DNA of 64,000 nt. Source: a virus. A program made the position numbers and the translations under genes. Under the pieces are notes generated by a model. It made no database searches and had not been told where the DNA came from. It saw only the letters and a list, made by a program, of their open reading frames with translations. Below are positions 3,127 to 53,912 of this stretch, piece by piece. Location of the stretch: the IMG/VR virus record IMGVR_UViG_3300033149_002817, positions 31,585 through 95,584 of that record; one strand, written 5' to 3'. Position 1 is the first letter of the stretch. Each line of letters starts with the position of its first letter.

Positions 3127-3142
3127 CACGGAGGAGCGAGCG

Positions 3143-3511: not shown

Positions 3512-3774
3512 TGCCGTTCGTCCCGGTCGAGAGGCTCGTGGAGAAGAAGGCGAGCTATCGCGCGGTCGTTCGCGGACGCGGGGATGGGTTGCAGTCCGCG
3601 GACGTGTTCAAGGGTGACGTCATTCACGACGGTACGCACGGCTCGCAGGGGGCCGTGCAGGCATGGCTGCTGCGCCACTACCCGAGCGTTGACGTCGAGG
3701 ATCACTCTCGCTTCGCGTCGCCCGAGGTTGACGACGATGACGACGGGGAGATGGTCGAGGAGGGATTGGCGTAG
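3511..3774 (+). CDS. Hypothetical protein (MPFVPVERLVE...)
   Basis: ATG overlaps the previous TGA; acidic tail. Confidence 0.55.
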   Translation: MPFVPVERLVEKKASYRAVVRGRGDGLQSADVFKGDVIHDGTHGSQGAVQAWLLRHYPSVDVEDHSRFASPEVDDDDDGEMVEEGLA

Positions 3775-3876
3775 ACCCGGATACGATTGAGCGTTATCTT
3801 CAACCAGGACTTGTGACTGTCGAGTAGCAACGTGCGGCCCGTTGGCAGGCAACCGCACACACTCTGAGGAGAGGAC

Positions 3877-4419: not shown

Positions 4420-4434
4420 CCGCGGGGGAACCTC

Positions 4435-35417: not shown

Positions 35418-35425
35418 GGTATGAC

Positions 35426-36373
35426 ATGCAGTCCGTACCAGGTAGCTCAAGCCCCTCGGGAAAGCTTCCCTACGATATCCCCGAGGGCTCGACGCCGTCG
35501 GGAGCTGCGAACCTCGCGAAGGTTCGGGCGAGGGACGACGGCACAGGCGCGACCGAGCTGGTGACTGTCTTTCAGAACTCTGAGCAGGTTCTCGCGCGTG
35601 ACGGTGGTGGTACCTTCCTGCACGAGAAGAGCTTCAGTCTTGCGCCGCCGTCAGGCACGGGATCGTACTACATCGCGGGGTTCTACGAGGCGCCTGCTAC
35701 CGATGCGAACCTGAACCAAGGTTCGACGACACAAGCATATGGCTCGGCGAATCACTTCTACGCTGCTCATGCTTTTCTCGTCGCTGGTGGTGCTGGTACG
35801 GCGACAGGTGGCGCGGGGGCCGTCACTGTCACCGTCACCGGAACGTCGTTCACCGACGCGGGTGTGCGTATTCCTGGTGACTCGGAGACCATCGTCGCCG
35901 ACATCACCGGTGCGGCGCTGAACCAGTATTTCGAGACGGCGAAGAAGTGGCTCGGCTTAGTTACCTTCACTCTCGACGTTGGTGCGACAGGTCATACAGC
36001 CTACGCCTTCGATTTCAACTATGGTTGGTGCAAGTACGACGACCGTATCAACACGAACTTCATCCTTCAGTCCATCGAGTGCGTAGGTCTCGCAGGCGCG
36101 AACGACAGCGGCTTCAACATCGAGCTGCTGCATCACAAGGCGGCAGGCTGGTTGTACTCCGCTGCGGCTTTCGCTCCCGGAGTCGTCATCTACGACATGA
36201 ACACCGACCATGTGACGGAAAAGAACCTCGTCAGTGGCGAGTATTTCGCATGGAAGAGAGGGAACCTGGCGACAGCTATAGCAGGCTCTGCCAGCGAAGG
36301 CTTCATCGTGCGGATAACCATCGGCGCGAACAACTCCGTGAACTATATGGACGTCCACATAGGTACCGAGTAG
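35426..36373 (+). CDS. Baseplate/fibre-associated structural protein
   Basis: GAGG SD; G/T/A-rich beta protein in baseplate operon. Confidence 0.65.
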   Translation: MQSVPGSSSPSGKLPYDIPEGSTPSGAANLAKVRARDDGTGATELVTVFQNSEQVLARDGGGTFLHEKSFSLAPPSGTGSYYIAGFYEAPATDANLNQGSTTQAYGSANHFYAAHAFLVAGGAGTATGGAGAVTVTVTGTSFTDAGVRIPGDSETIVADITGAALNQYFETAKKWLGLVTFTLDVGATGHTAYAFDFNYGWCKYDDRINTNFILQSIECVGLAGANDSGFNIELLHHKAAGWLYSAAAFAPGVVIYDMNTDHVTEKNLVSGEYFAWKRGNLATAIAGSASEGFIVRITIGANNSVNYMDVHIGTE

Positions 36374-36384
36374 GAGCGTAGACA

Positions 36385-39300: not shown

Positions 39301-39414
39301 CAGTACGACTGGGATCCGCATCTCTTGACGGTCGGCAACGCGTACCAGCTGAAGATCAACATCGACGCCGGTACGTACATTTCGACGAAGCTCATCAAGC
39401 TCATCAGCGTGTAG
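36385..39414 (+). CDS. Large fibre-like virion protein with internal repeats
   Basis: Two GTG.[GD]Q.R....Y.GAT....W...PD.T repeats; four (V/I)W(D/E)...H...(S/T)AG..L repeats; Cys-rich beta-helix-like middle. Confidence 0.7.
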   Translation: MAESRGMAIVRSGDTSILFRAALYDVADAKIVAGTTSLRLWHVVPTTGAVETYDFNDDTFKAGAVTTATSAMVHRQAENSTYDTGVWTLRHATLTAFTTGDKYVAEVSHASLTREIHIEFQYGATEGDVQFDVWEEILTAGTHDVATSAGRRLREIGTSVIRENTAQGPGTGNNQIQLDAGASAVNGQYDPSLVVLTGGTGAGQSRMVLEYAGATKTATVDRNWRTNPDATTVFQVLAFPGREHVNEGLFTAATAITAQLNTAASALDNAYLGQTLFIRSGTGEDQARVVVAYEGATRTCIINRPWGVTPDTTSAYVMLPQSTPAEVPHNPTGSSLVTGSTISGTVTNIGLNDASYWVMAPVGVAVGGFGLNLELTFLLTQYNAASAVVVDAKWTGSGPVDMWIWNYATSAWDRHSHVGKEIDGAADQTFTYAVLSEYQQDTDGEVKLRFTSPSTTVGDRFSLDQSVVQSVPVGKLTAADTSDSAFRRFVPLAYDGAVHIDTVSGVAGRDLGFHGTTTNPVDNVSDARALADLLGVRAYHLEPGTSITLVSEHKNWEFMGPNATVDLGSQDVDRAFFQYCRVTGTCTISAPFAFPTCYDCNLNSLITPLIVAIRCSCRDVTMSTASQFHTFADCNGGETGAAVHDHTFAATCEAQFLRWSGQLSLKSMAAGCIAHVEGTSVELTIDATCSGGVVNIAGNVHLTDNSGGAVTINQEARVTELSLAAGVWDENIVTSHGTLQSAGYLVRQLAAGIAARTNNSNLNALLAVADVPGHTLPSTDADAVWDENIVTAHGTGSTAGLLLRALGANISARANFPTLNDLLAVPDVVNNTIAHSIWDRALTAVLHNVVDSAGQRLRAIDDLLQGGGSGDAAAILLEVSKLDAATLTSPPIAGSVAAKLDAIIAGISGGVEFVVIVSIRGTELHIEVGLEELGIVLTTPTTCQVEFFAEGGGLVHTLSAGDFGAIGTRGFFQYDWDPHLLTVGNAYQLKINIDAGTYISTKLIKLISV

Positions 39415-39421
39415 GCACCGC

Positions 39422-41491
39422 ATGACGATCATCGTTGATGACAGTGGGCATCCCGTACTGCCGGGGGTACTCCCCGGTGTCGCGATCGGTCCCGCTTCTG
39501 TTCCGCCTACGTCCTTCTGGGCGACGATGGCGGCGGTTCCGCCTGTCGTCGCTCCGCCTGTCGTCTCCGATCCTGACGCGGATGTGCGCTTCGTCCTGCC
39601 GGATCTCTACTATTTCTACCCGCAGGTCATCCGCAACGAGGACGTGTATCTCGTTCCGCGCGGTGACGTTCCGGTGTACTTCTGGGACACCGTGCTGACG
39701 TGGGACACCGAACCTTACTCGTGGGATCAGCTGATCGGCCCGGAGCCGATTCTGCACACGACGACTCGCTGCCAGCAGATTGAATGGGAGCGCTCAGCGC
39801 TGGAGATCAACCGGCTGACGCGGCTGATCGACATCTTTGAGGTGCCCGCTGCCTACCTCGTGTACATCGCGGCGCAGCTCGGGACGGTGCTACCCGGCAC
39901 GAACGTCAGCGAGCAGCGGCTCTTCCTCTTCAACCTCGTGAAGTTCTACAAGGGGAAGGGCACACCGCTCACCTTCGTGCGCATGTTCGAGACGATGGGT
40001 TTTCATGTCTTCCTCACCGAGCAGTACCAGCGGGTGACGGACGCGAACTTCGTTCCCGGACCGCAGATAGCGCTTGTCGAGAGCACGTATGTCCTGGACG
40101 AAGCGGCCGGTACGACCATCGCCTCTCCGGGACCGTACCGGCTACGCCTTGCCAGCAACCCCGTCATGCGTGGCTCCATCAAGGTCACGGTCTACGATCA
40201 GGATGCCAACGCCCCGCGCGTCTTCATCGACAACAACGGCAGCTGGTCGGGCAACGTCACTGGCACCATCGACTACGAGACGGGAGCAGGCTTCTTTGTG
40301 CTGCCAGACACGCCGACGCTCGTGGGGCAGCCGATCACCGTCACGTACCGCTACCTCGCCGATCCGTTTCCGGACCCGTACGGAAGCCGGTGGGTGGACA
40401 GAGTGCGCAGCTCGTACGTCGCGGCGGCGTTTCAGGCGATCGATGACACGGTCGTCGTCACCGAAGAGCTGGCTGAGCGGCTGGAGGCGATGCTGGAGTT
40501 GCTTCGCCCCGCACACGTCCTGTTCGACGACGTTAGCCTCCGCAGCGCGTGGATCGAGGACGCGGCACCGACCGAAGAGATGAACATCTTCGGCATCCTG
40601 TTCTATGAACCGGTGTTCGAGGTGCCTTATCGCGGCTACGGCTACGACGTTACTGAGAACATGTCGACCATCCCGGACCAGCCGTTCGCGGGTCGGCACC
40701 GGGACGAAGAAGAGTGGATCATCACGTACGAGCAGGACGCCTTGCCGACTCCGCAGGCGCCCTACGTGTACCCGTGGTCGCGCACGGGGACGTTTTACAA
40801 CCCGCTCGACGTTACCTCTCCGACGAAGGACTACCTCGGCTACAGCCCCTACGACAGCTATGAGAGCGCGGTTACGGCGGACCTCGTAGCCTCGACGACC
40901 ATCTTCTCCATCACGGACGTGGGCACTCTCCCGGCGACGATCGGTAGCGGCAATTGCAAGCTCGTCTTCAAGACGGCGTCCGCGAAGCTCTCGGGGGAGT
41001 GGAGCGGCGTCGTGACCATCGTCGATAGCGGCGCCTACTTCACGGTCACGGTGAGCCCCGCGCTTCCGCTCGTGCCAGAGACGGGCGACGAGGTCATCCT
41101 GCTCCCGAACCGCGCGGTTCGGCGGGATTGCCTCGACGTGCGGCCGATCGACGCCCTTGATATCTACTACGTCGAGGACGCGTACCCGGGCAACGGCATC
41201 GCGACAACCTTCACGGGTTTCTACATCGCGAGCCAGCCGTGCCTTCCGAATGCGGTGCTGCTACGCTTCACCGTCGCCGGGACGACGTACGAGGAGTCTG
41301 ACGACGGTGTCGGAGGCTTCTCGAACAACAGCGGGCTCGTCGTCGGCGGAGGCACGTCCATCGACTACACGGGACCGGGCGCACCTCCCGCGGGTGAGTT
41401 CAAGTTTCAATCGACGATCGCACCGGACGGCGCAACGAATGTGCAGGTGCTCTACGGCACGGCGGGCACGACAGGACTGGGGGATTTCTGA
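39422..41491 (+). CDS. Baseplate wedge protein, gp7/P2 gpI-like
   Basis: YL.YIA.QLG, FYKGKGT, LRPAHV motifs. Confidence 0.8.
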   Translation: MTIIVDDSGHPVLPGVLPGVAIGPASVPPTSFWATMAAVPPVVAPPVVSDPDADVRFVLPDLYYFYPQVIRNEDVYLVPRGDVPVYFWDTVLTWDTEPYSWDQLIGPEPILHTTTRCQQIEWERSALEINRLTRLIDIFEVPAAYLVYIAAQLGTVLPGTNVSEQRLFLFNLVKFYKGKGTPLTFVRMFETMGFHVFLTEQYQRVTDANFVPGPQIALVESTYVLDEAAGTTIASPGPYRLRLASNPVMRGSIKVTVYDQDANAPRVFIDNNGSWSGNVTGTIDYETGAGFFVLPDTPTLVGQPITVTYRYLADPFPDPYGSRWVDRVRSSYVAAAFQAIDDTVVVTEELAERLEAMLELLRPAHVLFDDVSLRSAWIEDAAPTEEMNIFGILFYEPVFEVPYRGYGYDVTENMSTIPDQPFAGRHRDEEEWIITYEQDALPTPQAPYVYPWSRTGTFYNPLDVTSPTKDYLGYSPYDSYESAVTADLVASTTIFSITDVGTLPATIGSGNCKLVFKTASAKLSGEWSGVVTIVDSGAYFTVTVSPALPLVPETGDEVILLPNRAVRRDCLDVRPIDALDIYYVEDAYPGNGIATTFTGFYIASQPCLPNAVLLRFTVAGTTYEESDDGVGGFSNNSGLVVGGGTSIDYTGPGAPPAGEFKFQSTIAPDGATNVQVLYGTAGTTGLGDF

Positions 41492-41940
41492 TGACGCAAG
41501 GCTTCGACTCCGCGGAACCGGTTGCTGGGTCAGCGGTTGTCTCACAGCCGGTGCGCTGGAACTTCAATGCAGTCGCGACGACGCACTACGGAGACTCCGC
41601 GCCGTCAGACCCGCAGAGCGGATGGCCGTGGGTCGACAGCAGCGACCCGCTCAACGTCAAGCTCAAGTTCTACATCGAGGGCATCTGGTACGTCATAATC
41701 TCGGACCTGACGGCGGGGGCAATCACCCCAAGCGGGCTCGGGAAGTACATCCACAACGAGAGCGCGCCCGCCCTGACGTGGACCATCACGCATGGGCTCA
41801 ACACGGCGAGTCCGCTCGTCGGGGTGTGGGATAGCTCGAACCAGCTGATCCTCCCGGACACTGTCACGGTCATCGACACGAACCACGTGACGCTCACATT
41901 CCTCGTCGCGCAGTCAGGTCAAGCCATTATCGTGGGGTAA
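41491..41940 (+). CDS. Small fibre/baseplate protein
   Basis: TWTITHGLN..P.V.V.D...DTN..TLTF....G.A module. Confidence 0.7.
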   Translation: MTQGFDSAEPVAGSAVVSQPVRWNFNAVATTHYGDSAPSDPQSGWPWVDSSDPLNVKLKFYIEGIWYVIISDLTAGAITPSGLGKYIHNESAPALTWTITHGLNTASPLVGVWDSSNQLILPDTVTVIDTNHVTLTFLVAQSGQAIIVG

Positions 41941-41942
41941 GC

Positions 41943-42488
41943 ATGGGCATCTTCTTCCCTGAAGAGCTGGAGATCATCGAGAAGCAGCGTCGGGCGGCTG
42001 AAGGGCGCATCCTCGTCCAGGGGTGTTTGTCCTTCGTCGCGCGCGAGCCGGGCAAGCCGGGGCGGCTCCTCAGCGTCGGGGAGAACCTCGTCGTCAACGA
42101 GGGGAAGCAGTCGCTCGCGAAGCTGTTTGGGCTCACCGCGCTCGCCGGCACCTACCCGGCGGTCGCGGGCGTCTCCGACATCGGCTACTTCGCCGTCGGT
42201 GATGGGGGCCTGTCGCCGCTGCCGACGACGAACGCGCTCATCAACGAGCTGACGGGCGGGGCCGTTCCGCGGCCGACGTTCATCGTGAGCCTACCACCCC
42301 CAGGCCCCCCGCATGTTACCATGCTTGCTGTAGCACAGATCGGTACGTCAGATTTGAACGGCTCGAATATCGATGAGGCCGCGATTTTTTCGCAGGACAA
42401 TACAACCATGTTCGCCGCCCGCGGATTCGGTGCCATCGCGAAGACCGCGGCGTACGCCTTAGAGGGTCGGTGGACGATTACGTTCTGA
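41943..42488 (+). CDS. Tail-collar/fibre attachment protein
   Basis: NLVVNEG, AVGDG, L.NE, I.EAAIF, MFAAR, W.ITF. Confidence 0.75.
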   Translation: MGIFFPEELEIIEKQRRAAEGRILVQGCLSFVAREPGKPGRLLSVGENLVVNEGKQSLAKLFGLTALAGTYPAVAGVSDIGYFAVGDGGLSPLPTTNALINELTGGAVPRPTFIVSLPPPGPPHVTMLAVAQIGTSDLNGSNIDEAAIFSQDNTTMFAARGFGAIAKTAAYALEGRWTITF

Positions 42489-42501
42489 TGTCGATTGACG
42501 C

Positions 42502-42550
42502 TTGACCTTTGACTACCGCGTGGCTATCCTTCCTCACGGAGGTAGCCATG
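42502..42550 (+). promoter_or_regulatory. Sigma70-type promoter and SD-sequestering hairpin of the HNH gene
   Basis: TTGACC (42502-07), 17 nt, TATCCT (42525-30); tggctatccttcc pairs with ggaggtagcca. Confidence 0.6.
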
Positions 42551-43237
42551 AAGAGATCAAGGGAACGTGTCGAGAAGGTCTGTGAGCACTGCGGGGAGCA
42601 CTTCACCATCCTGGCAACGCGAGCGCGTAGAGGGAAGGGACGGTTCTGTTCTCGCCCGTGCGCAAACCTCGGCCGGCGGAAGGTCGGCGAGCGTACATGC
42701 GCGCAGTGTAAGGAGCTGTTCCATCGGCCACCGTCAGAGATGGGAGCGTTCTGCTCAAAGCAGTGTGCGGACGCATCGCGCAGGGTTCCAGCGGAGGAGC
42801 GCTTCTGGAAGCACGTGCAGAAGGGCAAGCCGGACGAGTGCTGGGAGTGGACGGGAGGTCGCTTCAATAACGGCTACGGTCTGCTGTCTATCGACCGGGT
42901 GCCGACCGGAGCCCATCGGTTCTCGTACCAGCTCGTGTACGGTGAGATTCCAGAAGGACGTTACGTCTGCCACACGTGCGACAACAAGGGCTGCGTCAAC
43001 CCTGCGCACCTCTTCGTCGGTACCGCCGCCGACAACATGCGAGACGCACAACAGAAGGGTCGTATGCAGCGTGGTGCGGACCGACCCGCAGCGAAGCTCT
43101 GTGAGGTCGACGTGCGCGTGATACGTTCTCGCGCTTCAGCGGATGAGCTTCATCGGGTCATTGCAAGCGATTACGACGTCTCGTCGGTAACTATCGGGCG
43201 CATAGTTCGACGCATCGCGTGGGCACACGTAAAGTGA
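42548..43237 (+). mobile_element. Free-standing HNH homing endonuclease with N-terminal Zn fingers
   Basis: CWEWTG...GYG...AHRFSY...VCHTCDN..CVNP.HL..GT..DN; two CxxC..FCSxxC repeats. Confidence 0.9.
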
Positions 43238-43245
43238 GGTAGGTT

Positions 43246-44532
43246 ATGGTTTTAGGGATAAAAGGCGCCGACGGGTTGGAGGTAGTCCGCGCTTACGTGG
43301 CGCAAGACCTTGTCTACGCGTCGATTGACAATAGGCCGATCGATGACCTCGGCGCGAGAGATGAGGATCTTCTCCGCCTCCACAAGCCTGCTCACGGTAT
43401 GCACATCGATCAGACGGCCTCGCCCTCCACGCAGGTCGTTGCTGCGCCTGGTACGTGGTACGCCGATGGCACGTCCATAATGCAGTACGCGGGAGCAACG
43501 CTTGCAGCGATCACGCCTACTGCAGCCGGGCGGATCAGACTCGACGTCATCTGGTTCTCCCTCGCGACCTCCCTCGTCACCGTCACGGCGGGTACGGGCG
43601 CAAGTGAGGGTGCTGTTGGGGCCGGTTTCGCTGCCCTAACGCGACCCGATCTTCCCGCGAACACCGGGGCGGTGCCGATCGCGTACCTCTACGTGGGAGA
43701 AGTCACGGGCTCTACGGTCCCCTTCGATCGGACCATTGCGATCAACACCGCGGGGCACATGGAAGACATCCGGCCGATGCCGGGGTTTGGTACCCCGCTC
43801 GGGGCACTGGAGTCGTCAGCTCCTAACCTTGCGGTCGATGGTGTGGCCGCTCTCGGCACGCAGGACGCGCTCGTGCGCTCCGACCATGTTCACCCCGCCA
43901 ACGTCAGCGCGGTGCTTCCCGCGTCGCTCTCCGTGGGCGCGGCAGGTGTGGCAGGCGCAGCATCGGTCTACGCGCGCGTGGATCACAACCATGCGGTTCC
44001 GCCGGCTACGTCGGGCGCGACCTTCCAGAGCGATGTCAGCGGCGGCTCGGCGGGCGCTTCGGCGCTTTTCGCGCGTGCCGACCATCGTCACGTGACGAAC
44101 GTCGGTGCCTCGACGCCTGCGCAGATCACACCAACTTCAGGCAGCGCGTCGGCCGGTAGCGGTACGGTCTACGCCCGGACCGATCACGTTCACTACGATC
44201 CGAACGTCGTCGAGCTGTACACCGTCACGTGGCAGTCAGGTGTGATCGCGCACGGAACCGACATCTTCAACACCTTCATCAATGGCGTCATGAGGTTTGC
44301 GGACAACGGGCTCGTCACGTCGAAGTCGACCGTGCGGTGCGTCGGCTTCGGGATGGTTGGCGCGCCGGACTTCACCGAGTCGAACGAGCGGCACCATGCC
44401 TCTCTCAGCTCGTCCTACATCATCACATACAACCATTTCGGCGTATGGGGGAACATCTCGTACTTCGCGACGTTCGCAGCGAAGCGTGGTACGTGGCGGA
44501 ACGCCCAGAACTTCATCGGCTACTTGAGCTAA
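43246..44532 (+). CDS. Tail fibre protein with four RxDHxH repeats
   Basis: R.D.I...PIAYLYV..I.D.RP N-terminal attachment-like domain; RSDHVH, RVDHNH, RADHRH, RTDHVH. Confidence 0.8.
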   Translation: MVLGIKGADGLEVVRAYVAQDLVYASIDNRPIDDLGARDEDLLRLHKPAHGMHIDQTASPSTQVVAAPGTWYADGTSIMQYAGATLAAITPTAAGRIRLDVIWFSLATSLVTVTAGTGASEGAVGAGFAALTRPDLPANTGAVPIAYLYVGEVTGSTVPFDRTIAINTAGHMEDIRPMPGFGTPLGALESSAPNLAVDGVAALGTQDALVRSDHVHPANVSAVLPASLSVGAAGVAGAASVYARVDHNHAVPPATSGATFQSDVSGGSAGASALFARADHRHVTNVGASTPAQITPTSGSASAGSGTVYARTDHVHYDPNVVELYTVTWQSGVIAHGTDIFNTFINGVMRFADNGLVTSKSTVRCVGFGMVGAPDFTESNERHHASLSSSYIITYNHFGVWGNISYFATFAAKRGTWRNAQNFIGYLS

Positions 44533-44543
44533 CGGAGGCGATT

Positions 44544-44810
44544 GTGCGTAACTTGGGGATGACGTTACTGCTTCTGCTTGCGGTGCTTGTGCTTAGCGCG
44601 TGCCCCGTCACCGTGCAGCAGTACGACGAGCAGACGGTAGCGAACGTGCGGAAGACCATTGACCACGAGCGGAAGACGATGGCGCGAATCGAGGCGACAT
44701 TCCCAGCGGACAAGCTCGCACCGTTCCGAGTGCTGCATGACGCGGAGATCGACCGCCTCGATGCGTGGCTCCTAATGGAAGAGGCCAAGTCGGAGAAACC
44801 CCCGCAATGA
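44544..44810 (+). CDS. Lipoprotein (o-spanin-like or exclusion protein)
   Basis: GGAGG SD; MRNLGMTLLLLLAVLVLSA-C lipobox. Confidence 0.7.
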   Translation: MRNLGMTLLLLLAVLVLSACPVTVQQYDEQTVANVRKTIDHERKTMARIEATFPADKLAPFRVLHDAEIDRLDAWLLMEEAKSEKPPQ

Positions 44811-45388
44811 CAGCTTTCCACGAGGACGCAGCCCCCTCCGAAGACCTTGAGATGCGCTCTCTCCCCGTCGAGGACTGCAGCATCGCACCGGGCGAGGGCG
44901 ACACGACCGCTGGACCGAATGTCGTCATCCCGCCGCGTGCGCCGCTCGACGAGATCATCGAGGTAGTAAAGTTTGAGGACGCCGTCGAGGCGGCGAAACT
45001 CAAAGCGGAGGTAGTGGCCGACGCGATTGCCGAGATCATCAAGACGCAAGCGCAGGTAGCGCTGACGCAGCTTGCGCAGGCGACCGAGACCGGGCTCGAC
45101 CTCGGCAAGCGCATCGTCCAGGGGATAGCGAACGTCGCGGAGCTGCTCGCCAAGGGTGAGATCGACACCGAGACGGCGAACGAGGCGCTCTCTCAGCGCA
45201 TGATGGCGTTGGAAAACCTCGCGTTCGCAGAGCGGAACGAGGCCGCTCAGATCGCCGCAGCGAGCGCGCGTGCTACCTTCACTGCTGTGTCGAGCGTGCT
45301 CTTCGGGCTCGTGTCGACCGGCATGACGATCATCTCGCCAGCCATCGGCGTTGGTCTGTCAAAGGCTTTGGGATCGCTTGGCGAGTGA
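44807..45388 (+). CDS. Helical protein with hydrophobic C-terminus
   Basis: ATGA overlap with lipoprotein; C-terminal VSSVLFGLVSTGMTIISPAIGVGL. Confidence 0.65.
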   Translation: MTAFHEDAAPSEDLEMRSLPVEDCSIAPGEGDTTAGPNVVIPPRAPLDEIIEVVKFEDAVEAAKLKAEVVADAIAEIIKTQAQVALTQLAQATETGLDLGKRIVQGIANVAELLAKGEIDTETANEALSQRMMALENLAFAERNEAAQIAAASARATFTAVSSVLFGLVSTGMTIISPAIGVGLSKALGSLGE

Positions 45389-45408
45389 AGATCCGCACGT
45401 TACCGGGT

Positions 45409-45561
45409 ATGAGCAAGAAGACGACGACCCGCGCCTGCGAGCATTGCGGTCGCCGGGTCATCGCTGAGCTGTGGATCGCTGTCAAAGACTGCGTGTGCTT
45501 GCACGGTGTGTGGAGAGAGCGCTACTTCTACCACTGCCCCTACTGTGACGGATTGCGATGA
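45409..45561 (+). CDS. 50-aa Zn-ribbon peptide (not in ORF track)
   Basis: MSKKTTTRACEHCGRR...YHCPYCDGLR; stop 7 nt before kinase ATG. Confidence 0.6.
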   Translation: MSKKTTTRACEHCGRRVIAELWIAVKDCVCLHGVWRERYFYHCPYCDGLR

Positions 45562-45568
45562 GGCGCTC

Positions 45569-46660
45569 ATGCCGCCCGACGAGTACGCGCTCCTGTTTGC
45601 GCACATGCTTGATGGCTTCGCGCTGCACGAGATCATCCTCGATAGTTCTGGCAAGCCCGTCGATTACAGATTCCTCGCGATCAACCCCGCGTTCGAGAAG
45701 CAGACCGGACTCCGTGCGGCCGACCTCATAGGGCGTACGGTTCTCGACGCCCTCCCCGACACAGAGCCCCGATGGATCGCGACCTACGGAAAGGTCGCGC
45801 TCACCGGTGAGCCGGTCGAGCTGGAGGAGTACGCTCAGGGGCTCGACCGCTACTTTCGCGTCGTGGCGTTCCGCCCGCGACCGATGCAGTTCGCGGTCAC
45901 CTTTCAGGACGTGACGGAGATCACGCGGGCGGCAGAGCTTCTTGAGCTTCGTGTTAAGGAGCGCACGGCAGAGCTGCAGTCGGCAAATGAAGAACTTGCA
46001 TCGTTCAGCTACGCGATCTCGCACGACCTCTGCTCTCCGCTCAGGGCCATCAACGGATTCGCGACGATCCTGAAGGAAAAATGCGCTCAGACGGCGACAG
46101 CGGACCCGCAGGCGAAGGTGTTCTTGCAGCGTATCTGCAAAGCAACGCTGCATATGGAGGCGCTTATCCGGGGTCTTCTGACGCTGTCGAAGACGACGCA
46201 GGCCGCGATTCGCTGCGTTGAGGTAGACGTGACGGACATGGCGAAGCGGATCGTAGAGACGCTACACTCCGAGGACACGAGCCGAAAGGCGGCCGTCACC
46301 ATCCATCCGGGCATGACGGCGATGGGCGATTCGTCTCTGATCCGTGTGCTCCTCACGAACCTCATCAACAACGCGTGGAAGTTCACCTCAGAGCGGAAGA
46401 CGACCGAGATTCGCATCGGGTACTCGGACGCCGTGTTCTTCGTTGAGGACAACGGTGCCGGGTTCGACGATACGGAGATGGATGGTCTGTTCAAACCCTT
46501 CCACCGGCTGCACGGCATTACCGAGTTCCCCGGCACGGGCATCGGGCTCGCGACGGTGCAGCGCATCGTCCACCGTCACGGTGGTGAGGTGTGGGCTCGT
46601 GCTCAGGTGGACAAAGGTGCGACCTTCTACTTCACACTTCCCCGTGTACCCCCGAAGTAA
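45569..46660 (+). CDS. Cytoplasmic PAS-domain sensor histidine kinase
   Basis: PAS (INPAFEKQTG...LIGR...QDVTE); H box SHDLCSPL; N box NLINNAWKF; G1 DNGAGF; F box FKPFHRL; G2 GTGIGL. Confidence 0.95.
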   Translation: MPPDEYALLFAHMLDGFALHEIILDSSGKPVDYRFLAINPAFEKQTGLRAADLIGRTVLDALPDTEPRWIATYGKVALTGEPVELEEYAQGLDRYFRVVAFRPRPMQFAVTFQDVTEITRAAELLELRVKERTAELQSANEELASFSYAISHDLCSPLRAINGFATILKEKCAQTATADPQAKVFLQRICKATLHMEALIRGLLTLSKTTQAAIRCVEVDVTDMAKRIVETLHSEDTSRKAAVTIHPGMTAMGDSSLIRVLLTNLINNAWKFTSERKTTEIRIGYSDAVFFVEDNGAGFDDTEMDGLFKPFHRLHGITEFPGTGIGLATVQRIVHRHGGEVWARAQVDKGATFYFTLPRVPPK

Positions 46661-46682
46661 CAGCATTTCTCTCAATTCTGTC

Positions 46683-46729
46683 TTGACTTCGTGTCCCCGC
46701 CATCGTACTATACTTGTGGAGCGAGTGAG
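46683..46729 (+). promoter_or_regulatory. Repeated early promoter element, copy 1
   Basis: TTGACT-17-TACTAT; 29-nt core catcgtactatacttgtggagcgagtgag at 46701-46729. Confidence 0.85.
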
Positions 46730-46747
46730 CTGAGACACGGAGCGCAC

Positions 46748-47089
46748 ATGGGCGACTTTGACAGATACTGGGCGATCGACGAGTGGGGTTCCCACCCGGA
46801 CGAGGGCAATGACGACCTGTGGACCGGAACCGAGCCGTTCCGGGCGGACGAGACGGACGCGAGGGCGTTCTTCAAGGGGTTCTCGCCCACCGAGGGGAGC
46901 AGCACGATGTATCTCGTACTCGTGAAGCTCGACGCCGAAAAGAGCAACGTGGGTGATCCGGTCGCTTACCGCCGGAACCCGGGATACCGGAAGACGAAGG
47001 ACGACCTGTCCGACTGGAACCGCGAGATCGCCATGCAGGCGGGCATGGGCGGCGGCTGCGACGCCTACAACGACGCAATGGGGTACTGA
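46748..47089 (+). CDS. Small acidic early protein
   Basis: GGAG SD; C-terminal EIAMQAGMGGGCDAYNDAMG. Confidence 0.7.
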   Translation: MGDFDRYWAIDEWGSHPDEGNDDLWTGTEPFRADETDARAFFKGFSPTEGSSTMYLVLVKLDAEKSNVGDPVAYRRNPGYRKTKDDLSDWNREIAMQAGMGGGCDAYNDAMGY

Positions 47090-47496
47090 TGACACGGCTC
47101 TGGAAATGCCCGGAGTGCGGGAAGGGGCTGCGCGCCCCGGGCCGGCTCCGCAAGAACGACACGCGGCGTTACTGCCTCCCCTGCTCCGCGAAGACAGGGA
47201 AGTTGGTAGAGCGCGTCTGCCCGGCAGCAGAGAAGAAGCGCGGCGTCGCCGCTGACAAGGCGAAGAAGCGCGGCGTGAGGCGTAAGTGCCATCCCGACAA
47301 CGAGACCGGCGTCAAGAGTCTTGACGTGGTGGCGGCCGACCCGCGTGTCGTGAAGGTGTGGAGCGAAGGCGAAGACGGCTATTGGGCGGAGCTGAAGCCG
47401 GGGCACAACTTCGAGGGCTGCTCGACGGTGCATGAGTGGACGGTCGAGTACATGAAGGTGGCGCTTGACCTCGTCGAGGAGGGCGACCCGTATTGA
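47089..47496 (+). CDS. Early protein with N-terminal Zn finger
   Basis: CPEC...YCLPC; coupled start. Confidence 0.7.
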   Translation: MTRLWKCPECGKGLRAPGRLRKNDTRRYCLPCSAKTGKLVERVCPAAEKKRGVAADKAKKRGVRRKCHPDNETGVKSLDVVAADPRVVKVWSEGEDGYWAELKPGHNFEGCSTVHEWTVEYMKVALDLVEEGDPY

Positions 47497-47517
47497 CGGG
47501 TTTCGTCGATTTTAGAC

Positions 47518-47564
47518 TTGATTTCGTGGCCTCCACATCGTACTATACTTGTGGAGCGAGTGAG
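47518..47564 (+). promoter_or_regulatory. Repeated early promoter element, copy 2
   Basis: TTGATT-17-TACTAT; identical core 47536-47564; ctccaca/tgtggag inverted repeat around the -10. Confidence 0.85.
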
Positions 47565-47587
47565 TCAAGCGAAGCGGAGAAGACACC

Positions 47588-48022
47588 ATGTGGCCTGAGT
47601 TCAAGAAGCCTGAGCCGAAGCCGGTCGGCACTTTCCATCTGGCTGAGGACGTGGAGTACACACAGCACTACGAGACCGCCTCGTGGTGGAAGAAGCACGC
47701 CGTCAAGGCGGGCAGCTACCCGATCGTCAAATCGACCGATCACGGTACGAACTACTGGTACCTCGTGCGGCTGCCGTCGGTTGTCGGGAACAGCGCCTTC
47801 GGCCGGAACCGGTACGAAGCCAACAGGGACAAGGGTCAGAGCGGCACGTACCATCTCCAGTTCGACGCCTACCAGGTTGCCAACTTCGTCGGCGAGGGCA
47901 AGGTGACGCTGAACGAGGACTGGGAAGTCGAGACGGTTGGTAAGTACGGCCCGGAGTGCGGGAAGCTGGCCGAGAAGCCGATAGTTCGGGTGAAGCCGGC
48001 TGGCTCGCCCTTCCAGGGGTAG
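47588..48022 (+). CDS. Hypothetical early protein
   Basis: GGAG SD; strong codon bias. Confidence 0.7.
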   Translation: MWPEFKKPEPKPVGTFHLAEDVEYTQHYETASWWKKHAVKAGSYPIVKSTDHGTNYWYLVRLPSVVGNSAFGRNRYEANRDKGQSGTYHLQFDAYQVANFVGEGKVTLNEDWEVETVGKYGPECGKLAEKPIVRVKPAGSPFQG

Positions 48023-48030
48023 GAACGGAC

Positions 48031-48378
48031 ATGGCAAAGAGCAAGCGCGACATCTCGGTGCTCTACGAAAGCATCGACCGCTTCTGTCAGCGGCGGAAGT
48101 TCAAGACTGTGAAGGGCGCAAGCAAGTTCGCCCGGAAGTGGGTCGGCGATCATCCCGAGCAGGGCTCCTACTACGCGGTCAGCTTCGACGGTGTCGGCAA
48201 GGTGAGCTGGTCAGGAGCGACGTTCGACGAGCTGTTTCCGCGCCCGGAGCCCGCCAAGAGCGACGACTACGGCTTCGGTGATTACCCCTACTGCCCCGAG
48301 CCGCCCGAGGTTGATTTCCCGTCGGATCTGCCGCAGTGGGTCGGACCTCCGATCGACGAATACCCCCTCCCGTTCTAA
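48031..48378 (+). CDS. Hypothetical early protein
   Basis: Y.SID....RKFKT..GA.KFA..WVG..PE.GS.YAVS.DG pattern; SD. Confidence 0.7.
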   Translation: MAKSKRDISVLYESIDRFCQRRKFKTVKGASKFARKWVGDHPEQGSYYAVSFDGVGKVSWSGATFDELFPRPEPAKSDDYGFGDYPYCPEPPEVDFPSDLPQWVGPPIDEYPLPF

Positions 48379-48397
48379 GCGGGAGTCGATTTTCCTC

Positions 48398-48444
48398 TTG
48401 ATTTCGTGGTCTCCACATCGTACTATACTTGTGGAGCGAGTGAG
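48398..48444 (+). promoter_or_regulatory. Repeated early promoter element, copy 3
   Basis: TTGATT-17-TACTAT; identical core 48416-48444; one mismatch to copy 2 over the element. Confidence 0.85.
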
Positions 48445-48464
48445 TGAGACGCGGAGACACGAGA

Positions 48465-48611
48465 ATGACGACGACTGAGCAGAGGGCCGACGCGGTGTTG
48501 GCTGAGGCAACTCGGGCAGCACGGGCAGGTGGGTTCCGGAAGGCGGGACAGCTCGCAAGGCGGGCAGCTGGCCTGTACGCCGACGCGCGGCGGGAGAAGG
48601 CGCTGATATGA
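48465..48611 (+). CDS. 48-aa Ala/Arg-rich peptide (not in ORF track)
   Basis: GGAG SD; ATGA-coupled to next gene. Confidence 0.55.
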   Translation: MTTTEQRADAVLAEATRAARAGGFRKAGQLARRAAGLYADARREKALI

Positions 48612-48883
48612 ATTGGGGTGAAGCGGCAGCTAAGAGATACGACTACGAAGCGCAGCTGTTCGGGTTGTCGCCGGAAGATCAGCGCTCTGAAGACGACGCG
48701 CTACTGTCCGCCGCTGCTGACGATAGCGAGCAGGGCGCAGCCGTCGCTGACGCGCTCGCCGTCGAGGCGGAGGCAGAAGGGGATCACGAGCGCGCCGCGG
48801 ACCTTCGGGCGTCCGCTGACGAGCAGCGTGAGGACGCGAAGCGCTACCGCGCCGAGGTCGATAAGCTCTACGAGGTGAGGTGA
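48608..48883 (+). CDS. Small acidic helical protein
   Basis: Coupled ORF; D/E/A-rich. Confidence 0.6.
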   Translation: MNWGEAAAKRYDYEAQLFGLSPEDQRSEDDALLSAAADDSEQGAAVADALAVEAEAEGDHERAADLRASADEQREDAKRYRAEVDKLYEVR

Positions 48884-49104
48884 TGAAACTACTACCGCTG
48901 GACCGAAGGCTCCGGGAACAAAGCCCCCGGTGGAGCATCGAAGACGGTATTGACGACCTTCAGACCGCGCTCAACATGGCGCGGGCGAACAACGACCGGC
49001 AGCTCGCGCTGATCGCGCGGCTCGCTCACTCGGGCGCGAGGATGGTCGAGTCGGGGCGGAAGCGCCTCGCGGAGAGCGCGGAGATCGAGGCGCTGTTCTC
49101 CTAA
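48880..49104 (+). CDS. Hypothetical protein
   Basis: GAGG SD; coupled; stop overlaps convergent gene. Confidence 0.6.
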   Translation: MMKLLPLDRRLREQSPRWSIEDGIDDLQTALNMARANNDRQLALIARLAHSGARMVESGRKRLAESAEIEALFS

Positions 49105-49460
49105 TCGTCTTCCGGCTCGATCTCATCGGGGGCCAGCGTGATGCTGTTGCCCTCGCCGCTTTGTACAGGGGGAGCCGGCGGGTGGTCGTCCGGTACCGGG
49201 GGAGGCTCGATCACGACCTCCTTCGGCAGCGACGGCGGGGCAGCCTCGAAGGTCGCGCTCGACTTCAGAAACTCGCTGCGCTCGACGCTGTCTTCGGCGA
49301 TGCGAGCGAAGACGTCGGCGACCTCGCGCACCGGATCGTCGGGTGCCCAGTTTCCCTTCTCCAACGCCCACGTCAGACCCCGATGCACGGCATACACCGC
49401 CCGGATGTCCATCTCGACGTTGTAAGTGACGTGAGGCTGAGCTTTTATGAACGTGGACAT
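49101..49460 (-). CDS. Hypothetical protein with Pro/acidic tail (MSTFIKAQ...)
   Basis: GGAGGGA SD before ATG at 49460. Confidence 0.6.
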   Translation of the reverse strand: MSTFIKAQPHVTYNVEMDIRAVYAVHRGLTWALEKGNWAPDDPVREVADVFARIAEDSVERSEFLKSSATFEAAPPSLPKEVVIEPPPVPDDHPPAPPVQSGEGNSITLAPDEIEPEDD

Positions 49461-49798
49461 TCTGTTCCCTCCGGTTTTCTCTGCTCCAACTCTACCACGG
49501 TGTGGGCGTCGATCAGGGGCGACACGAGAAGCTCGTCCACCGTCTCGAAGAACAGTCGTGGGGCGCCGCTCATCAGCTGGCCTACGATAGGGGCGATGTC
49601 GTCCACCTGGTACGAAGAGAGGCCCCCTGAGAGGGTTGTGAGGTGGACTACCCCCGGGCCGCTGTTCTCTCCTACCCCAGTCGCGTCCTTCCATCCCGCC
49701 TCGCGCAGCGCCTCGCAGAACGTCGCGACCGTCTCCCGAGCCTGCTCGGGGTCGAGACCGAAGGAGCAGCGAACCAAGGCGACCAGCATCTCCGTCAC
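49445..49798 (-). CDS. Hypothetical protein (start uncertain)
   Basis: Protein-like composition within the minus-strand operon. Confidence 0.5.
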   Translation of the reverse strand: MTEMLVALVRCSFGLDPEQARETVATFCEALREAGWKDATGVGENSGPGVVHLTTLSGGLSSYQVDDIAPIVGQLMSGAPRLFFETVDELLVSPLIDAHTVVELEQRKPEGTECPRS

Positions 49799-49849
49799 CG
49801 GACCCCGGACCGCGATCCCCTCTGCGAGCTGCAGAGAGACGGTGTCGAC

Positions 49850-50005
49850 TCACTCCTCTCCTTCTGCCGGGACGATGGGGTCGAAGGCCCGGCCACCCCA
49901 CCGGTAGAGCCACCCCTCATGAGCGACGAGGTTCCCGGGGCGTGGCGGGTGCTTGTGTACCCTGACGAACTCGGCGGCGGTCGGTGCGTGCTCAGGTGGG
50001 GTCAT
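49850..50005 (-). CDS. Small hypothetical protein (MTPPEH...)
   Basis: GAGG SD; overlaps end of HTH gene. Confidence 0.45.
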   Translation of the reverse strand: MTPPEHAPTAAEFVRVHKHPPRPGNLVAHEGWLYRWGGRAFDPIVPAEGEE

Positions 50006-50423
50006 CGTTCGCTGACCTCTGCTTTCTCTGGTGTCTGTGGTCGATCGCGTCCCCGAGGGCGTCGCTGAGCCCGAGGTTACTGACGACCCAACCGTCGAGC
50101 CAGCCCCCATCCGCTGTGCGCTCTGCGAGCTTGCCCCGCTCGTCTACCACGACGAGCTTCGGTTCCTCTCGTTGTACCATTCGCTTCGCACCCACCGCGA
50201 GGAAGCCGAAGATGCCGTGCTCGTGGACCAGCTCCCGAGTGCGGACATGGTCAGCGACGAAGGCGACAGATAGCGCTTTGAAGACCGCGCGAACGTGCTG
50301 AGGTAGCGCGTCGAGTCGTAGCCAACGTCTCATCCTCTGAGGTTTGACTCCGAGCTGCGCCGCAACCTCTTTGTAGCTCAGCTTTAGCGACCGGAGCATC
50401 AGCCTGATAGAGTCTCCGTCCAT
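49992..50423 (-). CDS. XRE-like HTH protein
   Basis: IR.ML..L.LSYKEVAAQLGV....MRRW. Confidence 0.7.
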   Translation of the reverse strand: MDGDSIRLMLRSLKLSYKEVAAQLGVKPQRMRRWLRLDALPQHVRAVFKALSVAFVADHVRTRELVHEHGIFGFLAVGAKRMVQREEPKLVVVDERGKLAERTADGGWLDGWVVSNLGLSDALGDAIDHRHQRKQRSANDDPT

Positions 50424-51360
50424 GCTCTCACACTTTCGTATACGGCAAAACGACTACCGATGATTCGCTACAACCCCCGTGGTTGAGGGAATCTATAACC
50501 ACCACAAACCCCGTTTTTGAACACCACTGGACGTGTGCAAAGCTCCGTAGAGTCGACCTGTGGGGACATGTAAGCTGAGAGGCAGCAAAGACTTGTGTGC
50601 TGTTTTCGGGCATCCTATGAACACCCTATAAAATCGGATTTTTATATCGAGCATCTAAACACTGAGCACTGAAGGGTTTGCAAAGACGAATGAGCACCGC
50701 TAACGCTACCAATGTTTATTGCTATCATTTTCTTTGAAACTGATTGTTTCGCCCCATCTCTGACACCCGAATATGGCCCATCAATATCCGGGGTTACGAG
50801 GCCGGTTTTCACTGGTACAGAAAAACGATGTCAATAAACTGAGCGCCGGGTTGCCCTCTTCCGCCTTCGACGTGGGGTGAATCCTACTCAACCTGACGGA
50901 TAATCTCCGCAACTCCTGACGGAAACTCAACTTACACACTTGGGAGATTCCCTTAGCGCGGCGGTCGGATTTTTCCTCGCGCGTAAGAAGCTTCTTCTCT
51001 TCGTTCAGAACAGTAAGAAGAACATCAAGATGGAAAACCAATACGGGATGTACCTTTTTGTACAAGTTGAGTAAGCTTAAGCTGTTAGCGAGCGGCGTGC
51101 CAAAAACTCGGCGGAGGAAAAAATTATTTTCGACTGCGGGCATTTGGCTCTCTGGCCGATCAGACAGATGTGACGACACCGCGAGGCTACCATCCGCACA
51201 AGCGTACCCCGCTCAGACTCCCGAGGCGGATTCCAGCCCCGTGTTCCGACATGATCCCGCGTCAGGAGCCCCGGAAGCCCGTCCAGCCCAGCATTCGAGA
51301 GCGGGTAGACGAGGGGTAGGGCGACGAGTATACTCGGCTCGGTTGTGGCGAGGCGAAAGC
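50424..51360. other. AT-richer non-coding region at a divergent strand switch; candidate origin/control region
   Basis: No codon-biased ORF; A/T tracts; several palindromes. Confidence 0.5.
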
Positions 51361-51675
51361 GTGCGATACTGGATCACTCTCATCCTGCTTGGGTTATGGC
51401 TTCTGGCGTTCCCCGCCACGGCTGGGGACGACCCAGCGTACGGTCTGTTCTCCCGCCCCTACTGCCATTGCGACGCCTGCTGTCGGGTCCGTGACGAGAC
51501 GCTCACGAGCTACCAGGTCCGTCTCGCGGGTCGTTCAGGTGGCTTCGTCTTCAGGTTTGTAGTCTTCATTGTTGAGAGTATGAGGTCTGGGAGTTTTCTT
51601 GATAGTGAAGAGGTTGATTTTGTGTCCTTCTCATCGTATCCTGTAGGTGAGGAGGTTCAAACACATGACAAGTGA
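51361..51675 (+). CDS. Possible secreted small Cys-rich protein
   Basis: GTG start; MRYWITLILLGLWLLAFPATA signal peptide; CHCDACC. Confidence 0.45.
   Translation: MRYWITLILLGLWLLAFPATAGDDPAYGLFSRPYCHCDACCRVRDETLTSYQVRLAGRSGGFVFRFVVFIVESMRSGSFLDSEEVDFVSFSSYPVGEEVQTHDK
51614..51642 (+). promoter_or_regulatory. Diverged fourth member of the promoter family, upstream of the replication module
   Basis: TTGATT-17-TATCCT with shared spacer t.gtgtcc....catcg. Confidence 0.65.
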
Positions 51676-52030
51676 CACGGGATGGGGCGGCAGGCGTGAA
51701 GGTGCGGGAGCTAAGCAACGGGAGCCTGAAGGCCCTGGGGTGCCGGTGAAGGTGCGCATCACGGGGCATATGATCGAGCGGCTGGCGGAGGTGAAGCTCA
51801 GGAGCTTCGTAGGCAACCGGCTGATGGAGATCGCGGCCCCGGCGACCCGCAGCGACTGCATGCGGCACGCGATGCACCTTGGGCTGAGCATTCACACCGC
51901 GCTGATCGAGCGGAAGCCCGAGAAGCTGCTCGGCCCGCTGCAGACCGCGCTTGAGGCGTCGAACGATATCGGACGGAAGGGCGTCCGCGAGGCGCTCCAG
52001 ACGCTGAAGGACGCCCTTCGGCAGCGGTAG
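51665..52030 (+). CDS. DNA-binding protein (WGGxRxGAG motif, ribbon-helix-helix-like)
   Basis: GAGGAGG SD; WGGRREGAGAK, VKVRIT..MIERL, RSDCMRHA. Confidence 0.65.
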   Translation: MTSDTGWGGRREGAGAKQREPEGPGVPVKVRITGHMIERLAEVKLRSFVGNRLMEIAAPATRSDCMRHAMHLGLSIHTALIERKPEKLLGPLQTALEASNDIGRKGVREALQTLKDALRQR

Positions 52031-52037
52031 GATCGGC

Positions 52038-53912
52038 ATGCGCGTAGAGCTACGCTATGGACCGGTATGGACGGGGTTCTTCGCTTCAGGTGCAGACGCG
52101 AGCTTCGCCATCCACAAGCACATGGGGCAGGTGCCCAACCCGCGGTTTCGCGCCGGAGGGGATGAGCCGCGGTTCTACAACTTCCTCAAGGGCGGACAAT
52201 TTCTCACGGGTCTGACGGATTGGGTGGAGCCGAAGCTCGTCGCCGACGGCGTTGAGGTGGTCCGCACGGACTTCCCCGAGTGGCCCGCGGTCAACGGCTG
52301 GAAGCCGGACCTGCTCGGCTCTGACCTCACGCTTCGCCCCTACCAGGTCGAGGCGGTCAAGGCTTGCATAGTCGGCGGCAGGGGCGTCGTGGAGATCGCT
52401 ACCGGTGGTGGGAAAACCCTCGTGTCTAAGGCGCTCACGAGAGCCCTGGGCACGCCGCGCACGCTCTTCCTGTGCCCGGACACGGCGGCGCTTCGCGACA
52501 TGTACCGGCGGTTCTCATGGGTCTTCGGTCGTGAGCTTGTCGGGCGCTACGGTGAGGGCTACTCGGACTCCGATCGGCAGATTGTCATCGCGACCGTCCA
52601 GGGGCTTATGAACGGGCTCAAGCGCGGTCGCAGCATCGTGACGGAGCTGCTTGAAGACATTGAGCTGCTCTTCGTTGACGAGGTCCACCGGTACGCGACG
52701 GCAGACGCTTGGCGGGAGGTGATCCTCTACTGCCGGGCTGCGCGCCGCATTGCGCTCAGCGGCACACCGTTCAACGCCGGCAGCGGTCCCTACGATCCTG
52801 AAGACATGGTGGTGCGGGGCCTCGCTGGCCGCACGCTGGTGAAGCTCTCGGTGAGCAAGCTCACGGAGATGGGCTATCTCACGCCGTGCTCGTTCATTCG
52901 GTTCCCGGCCGGCGGAGAGGACAACTACGTTCGGAGCTGGAACTGGGCTACGGTCTACAAGGAAGGCATCGTCCGCAACATGGAGCGCAACGAGCGCATC
53001 GTCACCTTGGCGACGAACCTCGCGGACGCTGGAGCACGCCCCCTTGTCACCATCGACCATCTCGATCACGGTCGGGCGCTGCAGTACATGCTGCTCGCGA
53101 ACGGCATCCTGTCGGTGTGTGCGTACGGGTCCGGGGCGCTCTTCGTTCCTCGCGAGCTGCTCGACGCTTTTGGGCCGGTCAAGTACACCGCTCCCGGCGT
53201 CAAGAGGGGGCAGCGGTGGATACCCTACATTGACCTCGTTCGGCACACGGAGAGTCGTTTCGTCCGCATTGAGGCGGACAAGCATCCGGAGGCGGAGGTG
53301 CGGGTACGGGAGCTATTTGAGGAGGGCGCGGTCGCAGTTCTCATCGGCTCCCGGATCTTCGACGAGGTGCAGAACATACCCTTCCTGACCGATCTCATCA
53401 CGGCGGCAGGCTACAAGCGGGGTAAGCGTGTTCGTCAGCGCATCGGGCGCGTGCTGCGGCTGTACCCGGGGAAGACGGCGGTACGTGTTTGGGATCCTCA
53501 GGATACGGTCCACAAGTTCCTCTCCAAGCATTCGGAGGAGCGGGAGTCGGTTGCGCGAGACGAGGGTCATCGGGTAGCTGATGGTCGGGTCGCTCCTGCA
53601 GAATGCCTCCTTCGGTTTCGAGACGTGCTTCCGAGGTACCTCAGGAGGGCTGACGTGCAGCTCACGAGCGTGAGTGTGAAGGTCGGGATGAGCTTGCCGT
53701 TGCAGAACGGTGCGATGGCTCACCCCGAGGTGGAGCTTACCGCGGCGCTTGACGAGGGCGAGGACGGTAAGGCAGTGGTTCAGCAGCTGGGCGTCAAGGC
53801 GCTCGGTGCTTGGTTTCAGGAAGCGCACAGACAGTCCTACTGGCTGTCGCAGGTTGCGACCGCGGGCGTGCAGGCTTCGCTGGCACAATTCATCGAGCAT
53901 CGCAAAGGGTAG
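52038..53912 (+). CDS. SF2 DEAD/H helicase, UvsW-like
   Basis: LRPYQ, ATGGGKT, DEVH, SGTP, QRIGRVLR. Confidence 0.92.
   Translation: MRVELRYGPVWTGFFASGADASFAIHKHMGQVPNPRFRAGGDEPRFYNFLKGGQFLTGLTDWVEPKLVADGVEVVRTDFPEWPAVNGWKPDLLGSDLTLRPYQVEAVKACIVGGRGVVEIATGGGKTLVSKALTRALGTPRTLFLCPDTAALRDMYRRFSWVFGRELVGRYGEGYSDSDRQIVIATVQGLMNGLKRGRSIVTELLEDIELLFVDEVHRYATADAWREVILYCRAARRIALSGTPFNAGSGPYDPEDMVVRGLAGRTLVKLSVSKLTEMGYLTPCSFIRFPAGGEDNYVRSWNWATVYKEGIVRNMERNERIVTLATNLADAGARPLVTIDHLDHGRALQYMLLANGILSVCAYGSGALFVPRELLDAFGPVKYTAPGVKRGQRWIPYIDLVRHTESRFVRIEADKHPEAEVRVRELFEEGAVAVLIGSRIFDEVQNIPFLTDLITAAGYKRGKRVRQRIGRVLRLYPGKTAVRVWDPQDTVHKFLSKHSEERESVARDEGHRVADGRVAPAECLLRFRDVLPRYLRRADVQLTSVSVKVGMSLPLQNGAMAHPEVELTAALDEGEDGKAVVQQLGVKALGAWFQEAHRQSYWLSQVATAGVQASLAQFIEHRKG

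Follow-up and report, generated by a model that had tools for sequence, protein, structure and literature searches.

Phages are known to use small inhibitor proteins against the signalling of their hosts, and they carry quorum-sensing receptors. Sensor kinases have also been found on phage genomes. The Clostridioides difficile phage phiCDHM1 encodes AgrC without AgrA (PMC7790227), and in this respect it is like the kinase described here, which has no cognate response regulator in the phage record. However, AgrC is a membrane kinase that senses peptides, belongs to another subfamily and is carried together with AgrB and AgrD by a temperate phage, whereas the present kinase is soluble, has a PAS domain and belongs to a myovirus in which no integrase was found. 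In the Burkholderia phage vB_E427 (PQ789820.1), two genes annotated as 'hypothetical' at positions 2748-4828 correspond to an OmpR-type response regulator and a kinase of the CusS-HAMP-HisKA-HATPase type. The kinase, carried here by an isolated phage, is likewise of the HisKA/HATPase kind, but it is of the membrane CusS-HAMP type, and the regulator directly upstream makes it one half of a complete, unannotated pair (CusS/CusR-like). Furthermore, the core of the kinase studied here falls in several phage and prophage kinase families of the PHROGs collection. The two phages and the PHROGs families temper the statement in the original prediction that sensor kinases are rare in phages; no biochemically studied phage sensor histidine kinase was found in the open literature that we searched. 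Phage-borne kinases are already known, and it is the lineage-specific features of this one that make it a good experimental case.

Among bacterial proteins, the kinases annotated as 'PAS domain S-box', with a PAS-HisKA-HATPase architecture, share with the phage proteins the domain order, the PAS motif, the H, N, G1, F and G2 boxes and the linker length class, at 38-53% identity. The phage proteins differ from these bacterial kinases in having Cys rather than Arg at position H+3, one heptad fewer, no downstream receiver, and a Zn-ribbon ORF upstream. The nearest solved core by sequence is the kinase domain of the bacteriophytochrome RpBphP2 (8F71; E 6e-29, TMt 0.83), followed by HK853 (2C2A, 3DGE). 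The likeness to bacteriophytochromes is confined to this core, since the phage kinase has one PAS_4 domain only and no PAS-GAF-PHY; without this bilin-binding module the phage proteins are not phytochromes. The earlier description of the kinase core as bacteriophytochrome-type therefore holds for the kinase half alone, for which 8F71 is the best PDB match by sequence. YF1, SB2F1 and kinases of the FixL type (4GCZ, 8A6X; about 365-385 aa) have, like the phage kinase, a single N-terminal PAS-type sensor, a coiled-coil linker, a DHp domain and a CA domain. YF1 and SB2F1 are, however, engineered LOV-FixL chimeras with flavin, are 22-24% identical to the phage protein, and differ from it in that the phage PAS domain has neither the LOV Cys motif nor a known cofactor.

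Predicted architecture of the kinase

The window analysed in this study is a stretch of 64,000 nucleotides, which comprises bases 31585-95584 of a linear IMG/VR virus record of 95,584 bp with a completeness of about 44% as estimated by CheckV. The sensor histidine kinase gene lies on the plus strand at 45569..46660 and encodes 363 amino acids plus a stop codon. A search of the 363-aa protein against Pfam gave matches to PAS_4 (3.8e-06), HisKA (2.4e-09; 37.6 bits, cut-off 26.9) and HATPase_c (5.4e-22; 78.8 bits, cut-off 26.4), all of them above the gathering cut-offs. The PAS sensor domain covers aa 1-118 (45569..45922, plus strand), with the PAS_4 match at aa 32-117, and carries the motif DYRFL..NPAFE..TGL that is common to the phage kinase and its bacterial homologues. 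A signalling helix and DHp hairpin follow at aa 116-211 (45914..46201, plus strand), and the catalytic ATP-binding (CA) domain, which holds the HATPase_c match and the N, G1, F and G2 boxes, occupies aa 216-363 (46214..46657, plus strand).

We predicted the structure of the protein with AlphaFold2 from 91 aligned sequences, and the model has a mean pLDDT of 93. It consists of a PAS fold at aa 3-114, one long helix at 116-174, a second DHp helix at 180-211 and an alpha/beta CA domain at 217-356. The best whole-chain matches of the model in Foldseek are the soluble one-sensor kinases YF1 and SB2F1 (4GCZ, 8A6X), while HK853 and 8F71 are among the best core matches; the latter, the RpBphP2 kinase domain, also ranks first in the PDB by sequence. 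The Foldseek probability is 1.00 for HK853, RpBphP2 and ZraS. By its sequence and predicted fold, the protein is a soluble, one-PAS, class-I (HisKA, PF00512, plus HATPase_c, PF02518) sensor histidine kinase. Against the PADLOC models of defence and counter-defence systems it gave only a chance-level match (E 0.006).

We judged the conservation of the functional boxes in two alignments, one of 13 homologues and one of 91. In the H box, SHDLCSPL, H152 is encoded at 46022-46024 and C155 at 46031-46033. H152 is invariant in both alignments, and the acidic residue at H+1, D153, is invariant among the 13 sequences and nearly invariant (at least 90%) among the 91. The columns of the N box (N264/N268), the G1 box (D294-G296-G298), the F box (F308/F311) and the G2 box (G322-G324-G326) are invariant or nearly so. 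These columns and the Pfam scores bear out the prediction of an intact soluble PAS-HisKA-HATPase protein with all of its boxes. The codon style had also been described as like that of the neighbours, and this is what we find: the kinase gene has a GC3 of 0.77, compared with 0.76-0.86 for the adjacent genes. A GAGG sequence lies 5 nt ahead of the kinase ATG, and the gene has its own GAGG/GGAG ribosome site.

Genome setting and conservation in a second phage

The record derives from a large, uncultured tailed phage, a myovirus, that is probably virulent; no integrase, tRNA or second kinase or HATPase gene was found in the 95,584-bp record. In a gene call based on GC3, the genes of the window lie on the plus strand, with the exception of a few minus-strand ORFs in the early region. 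To the 5' side of the kinase are genes for a head maturation protease, the tail sheath, baseplate hub and wedge proteins, long fibre-type proteins and an HNH endonuclease. To the 3' side of three repeated promoters are small ORFs, followed by two helicases, a primase and a family-A DNA polymerase with endonuclease inserts. With tail genes upstream and replication genes downstream, the kinase closes the late block and stands directly before the early region, at the late/early boundary where the original prediction had placed it. Relatives of the phage were sought in IMG/VR by means of the kinase, a two-phage kinase profile and a conserved 149-aa tail protein, and in the INPHARED phage collection by a DNA search, and none were found; the tail sheath and helicase gave distant matches only, so that no cultured relative or host could be named.

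In the protein database the identical kinase occurs on 6 contigs, and there is one further protein (P0002) with 68% identity to it. The latter is carried by L010, an independent metagenome contig of 15,731 bp that is collinear with positions 35363-52200 of the window at about 72% nucleotide identity. The gene order common to both runs from the fibre genes through the fibre-tip protein (428 aa in the window, 466 aa in L010), the lipoprotein, a protein of 193 or 174 aa respectively and the Zn-ribbon ORF to the kinase, and after the kinase the order of promoter, early ORFs and helicase is also that of the window. Only the HNH gene is missing from L010 within the collinear stretch.

The stop codon of the kinase at 46660 is followed after 22 nt by a sigma70-type promoter, TTGACT-17-TACTAT, at 46683..46711 on the plus strand, a spacing that agrees with the earlier reading of the sequence. 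This is the first of three repeated promoters and marks the start of the early region. The pattern recurs at 47518-47546 and 48398-48426, giving three exact matches where 0 are expected by chance; each of the three copies is followed by a shared leader, TGTGGAGCGAGTGAG, and they head small early ORFs. L010 has copies of the promoter element at 10223-10251 and 11572-11600 with a better -10 box (TATAAT); 16 nt past its kinase stop the element reads TTGATT-17-TATAAT and has the same leader.

To estimate selection, dN/dS values were calculated by the Nei-Gojobori method for the window phage against L010, a comparison of two genomes in which dS is about 0.8-1.0 throughout. The whole kinase has a dN/dS of 0.30 with a dS of about 0.87, the same as the structural genes, and the values for its parts are 0.34 for the PAS domain, 0.26 for DHp and 0.28 for CA. 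Six neighbouring virion or membrane genes range from 0.19 to 0.35, and the Zn-ribbon ORF has a value of 0.14. Between the two phages about 30% of amino acids differ. Around the phospho-acceptor His, a stretch of 20 residues is identical in both despite 8 synonymous codon differences. As the same gene is found in the same place and under purifying selection in both, these well-diverged phages inherited it from their common ancestor. The kinase lies between tail and replication genes and is retained syntenically in L010, which qualifies it as a phage accessory gene; on the evidence of these sequence comparisons, it is functional, vertically inherited and under purifying selection.

Bacterial matches to the kinase number in the thousands, and the best of them, which are 38-53% identical, come from metagenomes and MAGs of many phyla. 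The phylogeny that had been proposed for finding the donor, a FastTree tree of 141 rows, unites the two phage kinases in one clade with a support of 100 and contains no supported bacterial sister group. Judged from this tree, the capture of the kinase is either old or from an unsampled lineage.

The kinase is the last of four tightly packed genes, which encode a lipoprotein, a coiled-coil membrane protein, the Zn-ribbon protein and the kinase. The first, at 44559..44810 on the plus strand, encodes an 83-aa predicted lipoprotein with the lipobox LSAC, as read from the sequence and the L010 alignment; it has no family match, and its stop overlaps the start of the next gene. The product of the second (44807..45388, plus strand) is a coiled-coil protein of 193 aa. 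It has a hydrophobic anchor at its C-terminus and gave only faint tape-measure-like PHROG matches. This protein is kept in L010 with the same MTAFHED start and a dN/dS of 0.23, and its stop overlaps the Zn-ribbon start. Around the kinase and among the four packed genes, no sigma70-like promoter or terminator could be recognized other than the downstream early promoter. From this and from the packing of the genes we infer that the four are co-transcribed late, which would place expression of the kinase with that of the membrane-protein genes.

The third gene, the Zn-ribbon ORF (45385..45561, plus strand), has the pattern CxxC...C...CxxC and can be read as 58 aa from GTG 45385 or as 50 aa from ATG 45409. 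The GTG is the more likely start, because L010 has the same length of 58 aa and the same kind of overlap with the upstream stop. The original prediction of a CxxC..CxxC ORF whose stop (45561) lies 7 nt before the kinase ATG thus stands, with its length revised from 50 to a probable 58 aa. The ORF is 74% identical in L010 with five conserved Cys and, at a dN/dS of 0.14, is more conserved than the kinase. It has no match in Pfam, PHROG, NCBIfam or PADLOC and no homologue among 5.8 billion proteins, with only generic small zinc-ribbon look-alikes in the Atlas; as far as these searches reach, it is found only in this phage lineage. The kinase frame is open upstream, from GTG 45506, and overlaps the Zn-ribbon ORF over 56 nt. 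We set aside the idea that a frameshift fuses the Zn-ribbon ORF to the kinase, because the kinase has its own ribosome site and only the Zn-ribbon frame is conserved in the overlap.

Lineage-specific features and possible targets

The H box had been singled out as unusual, and comparison with the homologues confirms this. In the 272 distinct homologues whose H box could be read, the residue at H+3 is Arg in 258 cases, and the exceptions include 7 with Gln, 2 with Thr and one each with Lys and Ser; Cys occurs in the phage pair only. C155 thus stands where class I kinases have a basic or polar residue (Arg, Lys or Gln), and it is the sole Cys common to both phage kinases. In the Michaelis complex of CpxA, Arg251 at H+3 hydrogen-bonds the gamma-phosphate of ATP (PMC3904827). 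By analogy, C155 may lower or condition the autokinase activity and need not abolish it. 8F71 carries Lys at this position, and the existence of natural kinases with Gln or Lys at H+3 means that Cys need not change the activity. The phage kinase has kept R159 at H+7, a position that is needed for receiver binding in DrBphP (PMC8292422); by comparison with that protein, the retained R159 fits continued docking of a receiver.

The linker between the sensor and the DHp domain is also altered. In both phages, 36 residues separate the end of the PAS domain from the His, where most homologues have 43. Linker lengths in the homologues fall into two classes, 36/43/50 and 32/39/46, and the phage linker stays in the first of these, which implies that one heptad has been deleted with the coiled-coil register kept.

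The third feature is the missing receiver. A search for Response_reg (PF00072) in the 95,584-bp record, which is about 44% complete, gave no match, and neither did a receiver profile built from hybrid members of the family; no receiver is present among the listed ORFs of the 15.7-kb L010. The absence of a receiver domain that had been reported for the window therefore extends to the rest of the available record, and the kinase does not form part of a complete two-component system within these 95,584 bp (about 44% of the genome) or among the listed ORFs of L010. In 50 bacterial loci with adequate flanks, a receiver ORF lies within 300 bp on the same strand in 29, the kinase is a hybrid in 4, and there is no receiver in 11. 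Adjacent receiver ORFs are mostly short, and 99 of 113 are downstream of the kinase, in line with the expectation that relatives of this kinase signal to separate receivers. Ten other contigs that IMG/VR has filed as viral carry members of the family, nine of them with a full-length kinase, and all nine of these have a receiver ORF at or just past the kinase end; the IMG/VR kinases with a readable H box keep Arg or Lys at H+3 (6 of 6). In both phages, the early promoter occupies the place where the relatives have their downstream receiver.

Taken together, these data favor, with a probability of roughly 0.55, a selected accessory sensor kinase that is co-transcribed late and acts on host receivers, possibly with a shifted balance of kinase and phosphatase activities. 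The kinase would be made late, along with the products of the lipoprotein, membrane-protein and Zn-ribbon genes, and its PAS domain would read an intracellular cue. It would then act on a receiver of the host, the simplest candidate being the short one of a homologous pair; a host target is suggested because the phage lineage has lost the short downstream receiver of its bacterial relatives. The change from Arg to Cys at H+3 would take away the side chain with which CpxA contacts the gamma-phosphate of ATP, and C155 may give rise to a weaker autokinase with net phosphatase or phosphate-sink behaviour, or to a thiol-sensitive enzyme. The small Zn-ribbon protein, whose gene is adjacent to that of the kinase and co-conserved with it in two genomes, may serve as its partner or regulator. 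Action on host receivers would place the phage within one of the host's two-component pathways; otherwise, this is one more accessory gene of bacterial origin. The kinase offers a clean test case, in that it is a small, soluble protein predicted with high confidence and under selection across two diverged phages, with a single lineage-specific change by the phospho-acceptor His, a lost ancestral receiver and a co-conserved partner ORF.

It is rather unlikely that the kinase is instead half of a complete phage two-component system, in which a receiver encoded in the remaining 55% or so of the genome regulates phage genes and not host pathways. The CheckV completeness of 44% leaves room for such a gene, and the kinases of vB_E427 and of the IMG/VR contigs do come with receivers. 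However, the receiver of the relatives lies directly downstream, at the place taken by the early promoter in both phages, and there is no receiver in 95.6 kb of this phage nor in the 15.7 kb of L010.

We consider it unlikely that the protein is a decoy or poison without turnover, one that pairs with a homologous kinase of the host in mixed dimers or ties up a host receiver, its own autophosphorylation being crippled by C155. Such a role would be consistent with a Cys that is unique among 272 homologues at a position where Arg contacts the ATP gamma-phosphate in CpxA, and with the conserved DHp region and R159 at H+7. On the other hand, purifying selection, with a dN/dS of 0.28 for the CA domain, has preserved the His, the acidic residue at H+1 and all of the ATP-binding boxes, which a pure decoy is not expected to retain; moreover, Gln and Lys occur at H+3 in natural kinases of the family.

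A more elaborate proposal, and in our estimation quite an improbable one, is that the kinase with its Cys in the H box and the Zn-ribbon ORF make up a signalling module of two genes that is specific to the phage and has been rewired away from the ancestral pair of kinase and receiver. The PAS domain and the thiol by the phospho-His would let the kinase sense the redox or energy state of the host, and kinase and Zn-ribbon protein together would control a host receiver or the adjacent membrane or lysis-type proteins to time late events such as lysis. Were this so, a virulent phage would be taking an infection decision with a sensor of its own.

Finally, the original prediction had itself raised outcomes against the gene, namely a chimeric assembly or a host gene of recent capture that is not expressed or is in decay. 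These have the bacterial affinity of the family in their favor and nothing more, and are refuted as far as sequence evidence goes. Both junctions recur in the independent contig of a phage that is about 30% diverged, and the identical protein is found on 6 contigs. The GC3 of the gene is like that of its neighbours, and the nearest bacterial homologues are only 38-53% identical, with no supported sister clade. The synteny in L010, together with a dN/dS of 0.30 at a dS of about 0.87, as in the structural genes, shows that the kinase is neither chimeric nor decaying.

Other genes of the phage

Several other genes of the phage gave observations that are independent of the kinase. A homing-type HNH endonuclease gene (Pfam HNH_3) lies among the tail genes at 42509-43237 and is missing at the same place in L010; from this comparison it looks like a mobile insertion. 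It is followed at 43246-44532 by a gene whose fibre-tip-like product of 428 aa has D-H-x-H motifs at four spaced sites (DHVHP, DHNHA, DHRHV and DHVHY). This protein is 59% identical overall to its orthologue in L010, with a dN/dS of 0.35, and its C-terminal third is divergent, as expected for the receptor-binding part.

The pair formed by the lipoprotein and the coiled-coil membrane-anchor protein (44559-45388) may, to judge from sequence features, be a lysis or spanin-like cassette; no family match supports a lysis-module reading of these genes. The corresponding genes of L010 are at its positions 7889-8931, where the lipoprotein frame extends upstream through two hydrophobic segments.

The early region contains a minus-strand ORF at 49992-50423 with weak matches to PHROG families of the helix-turn-helix or repressor type (E about 1e-3) and 43% identity in L010, which may encode a regulator; another minus-strand ORF of this region is at 50781-51179. 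Further downstream, at 56899-62097, the 1732-aa ORF of the family-A DNA polymerase has internal matches to HNH and LAGLIDADG endonucleases, which suggests intein-type insertions. At the other end of the record, upstream of the window, bases 428-4240 encode a 1271-aa head-region protein in which a short segment, aa 749-809, matches a PHROG 'toxin' family.
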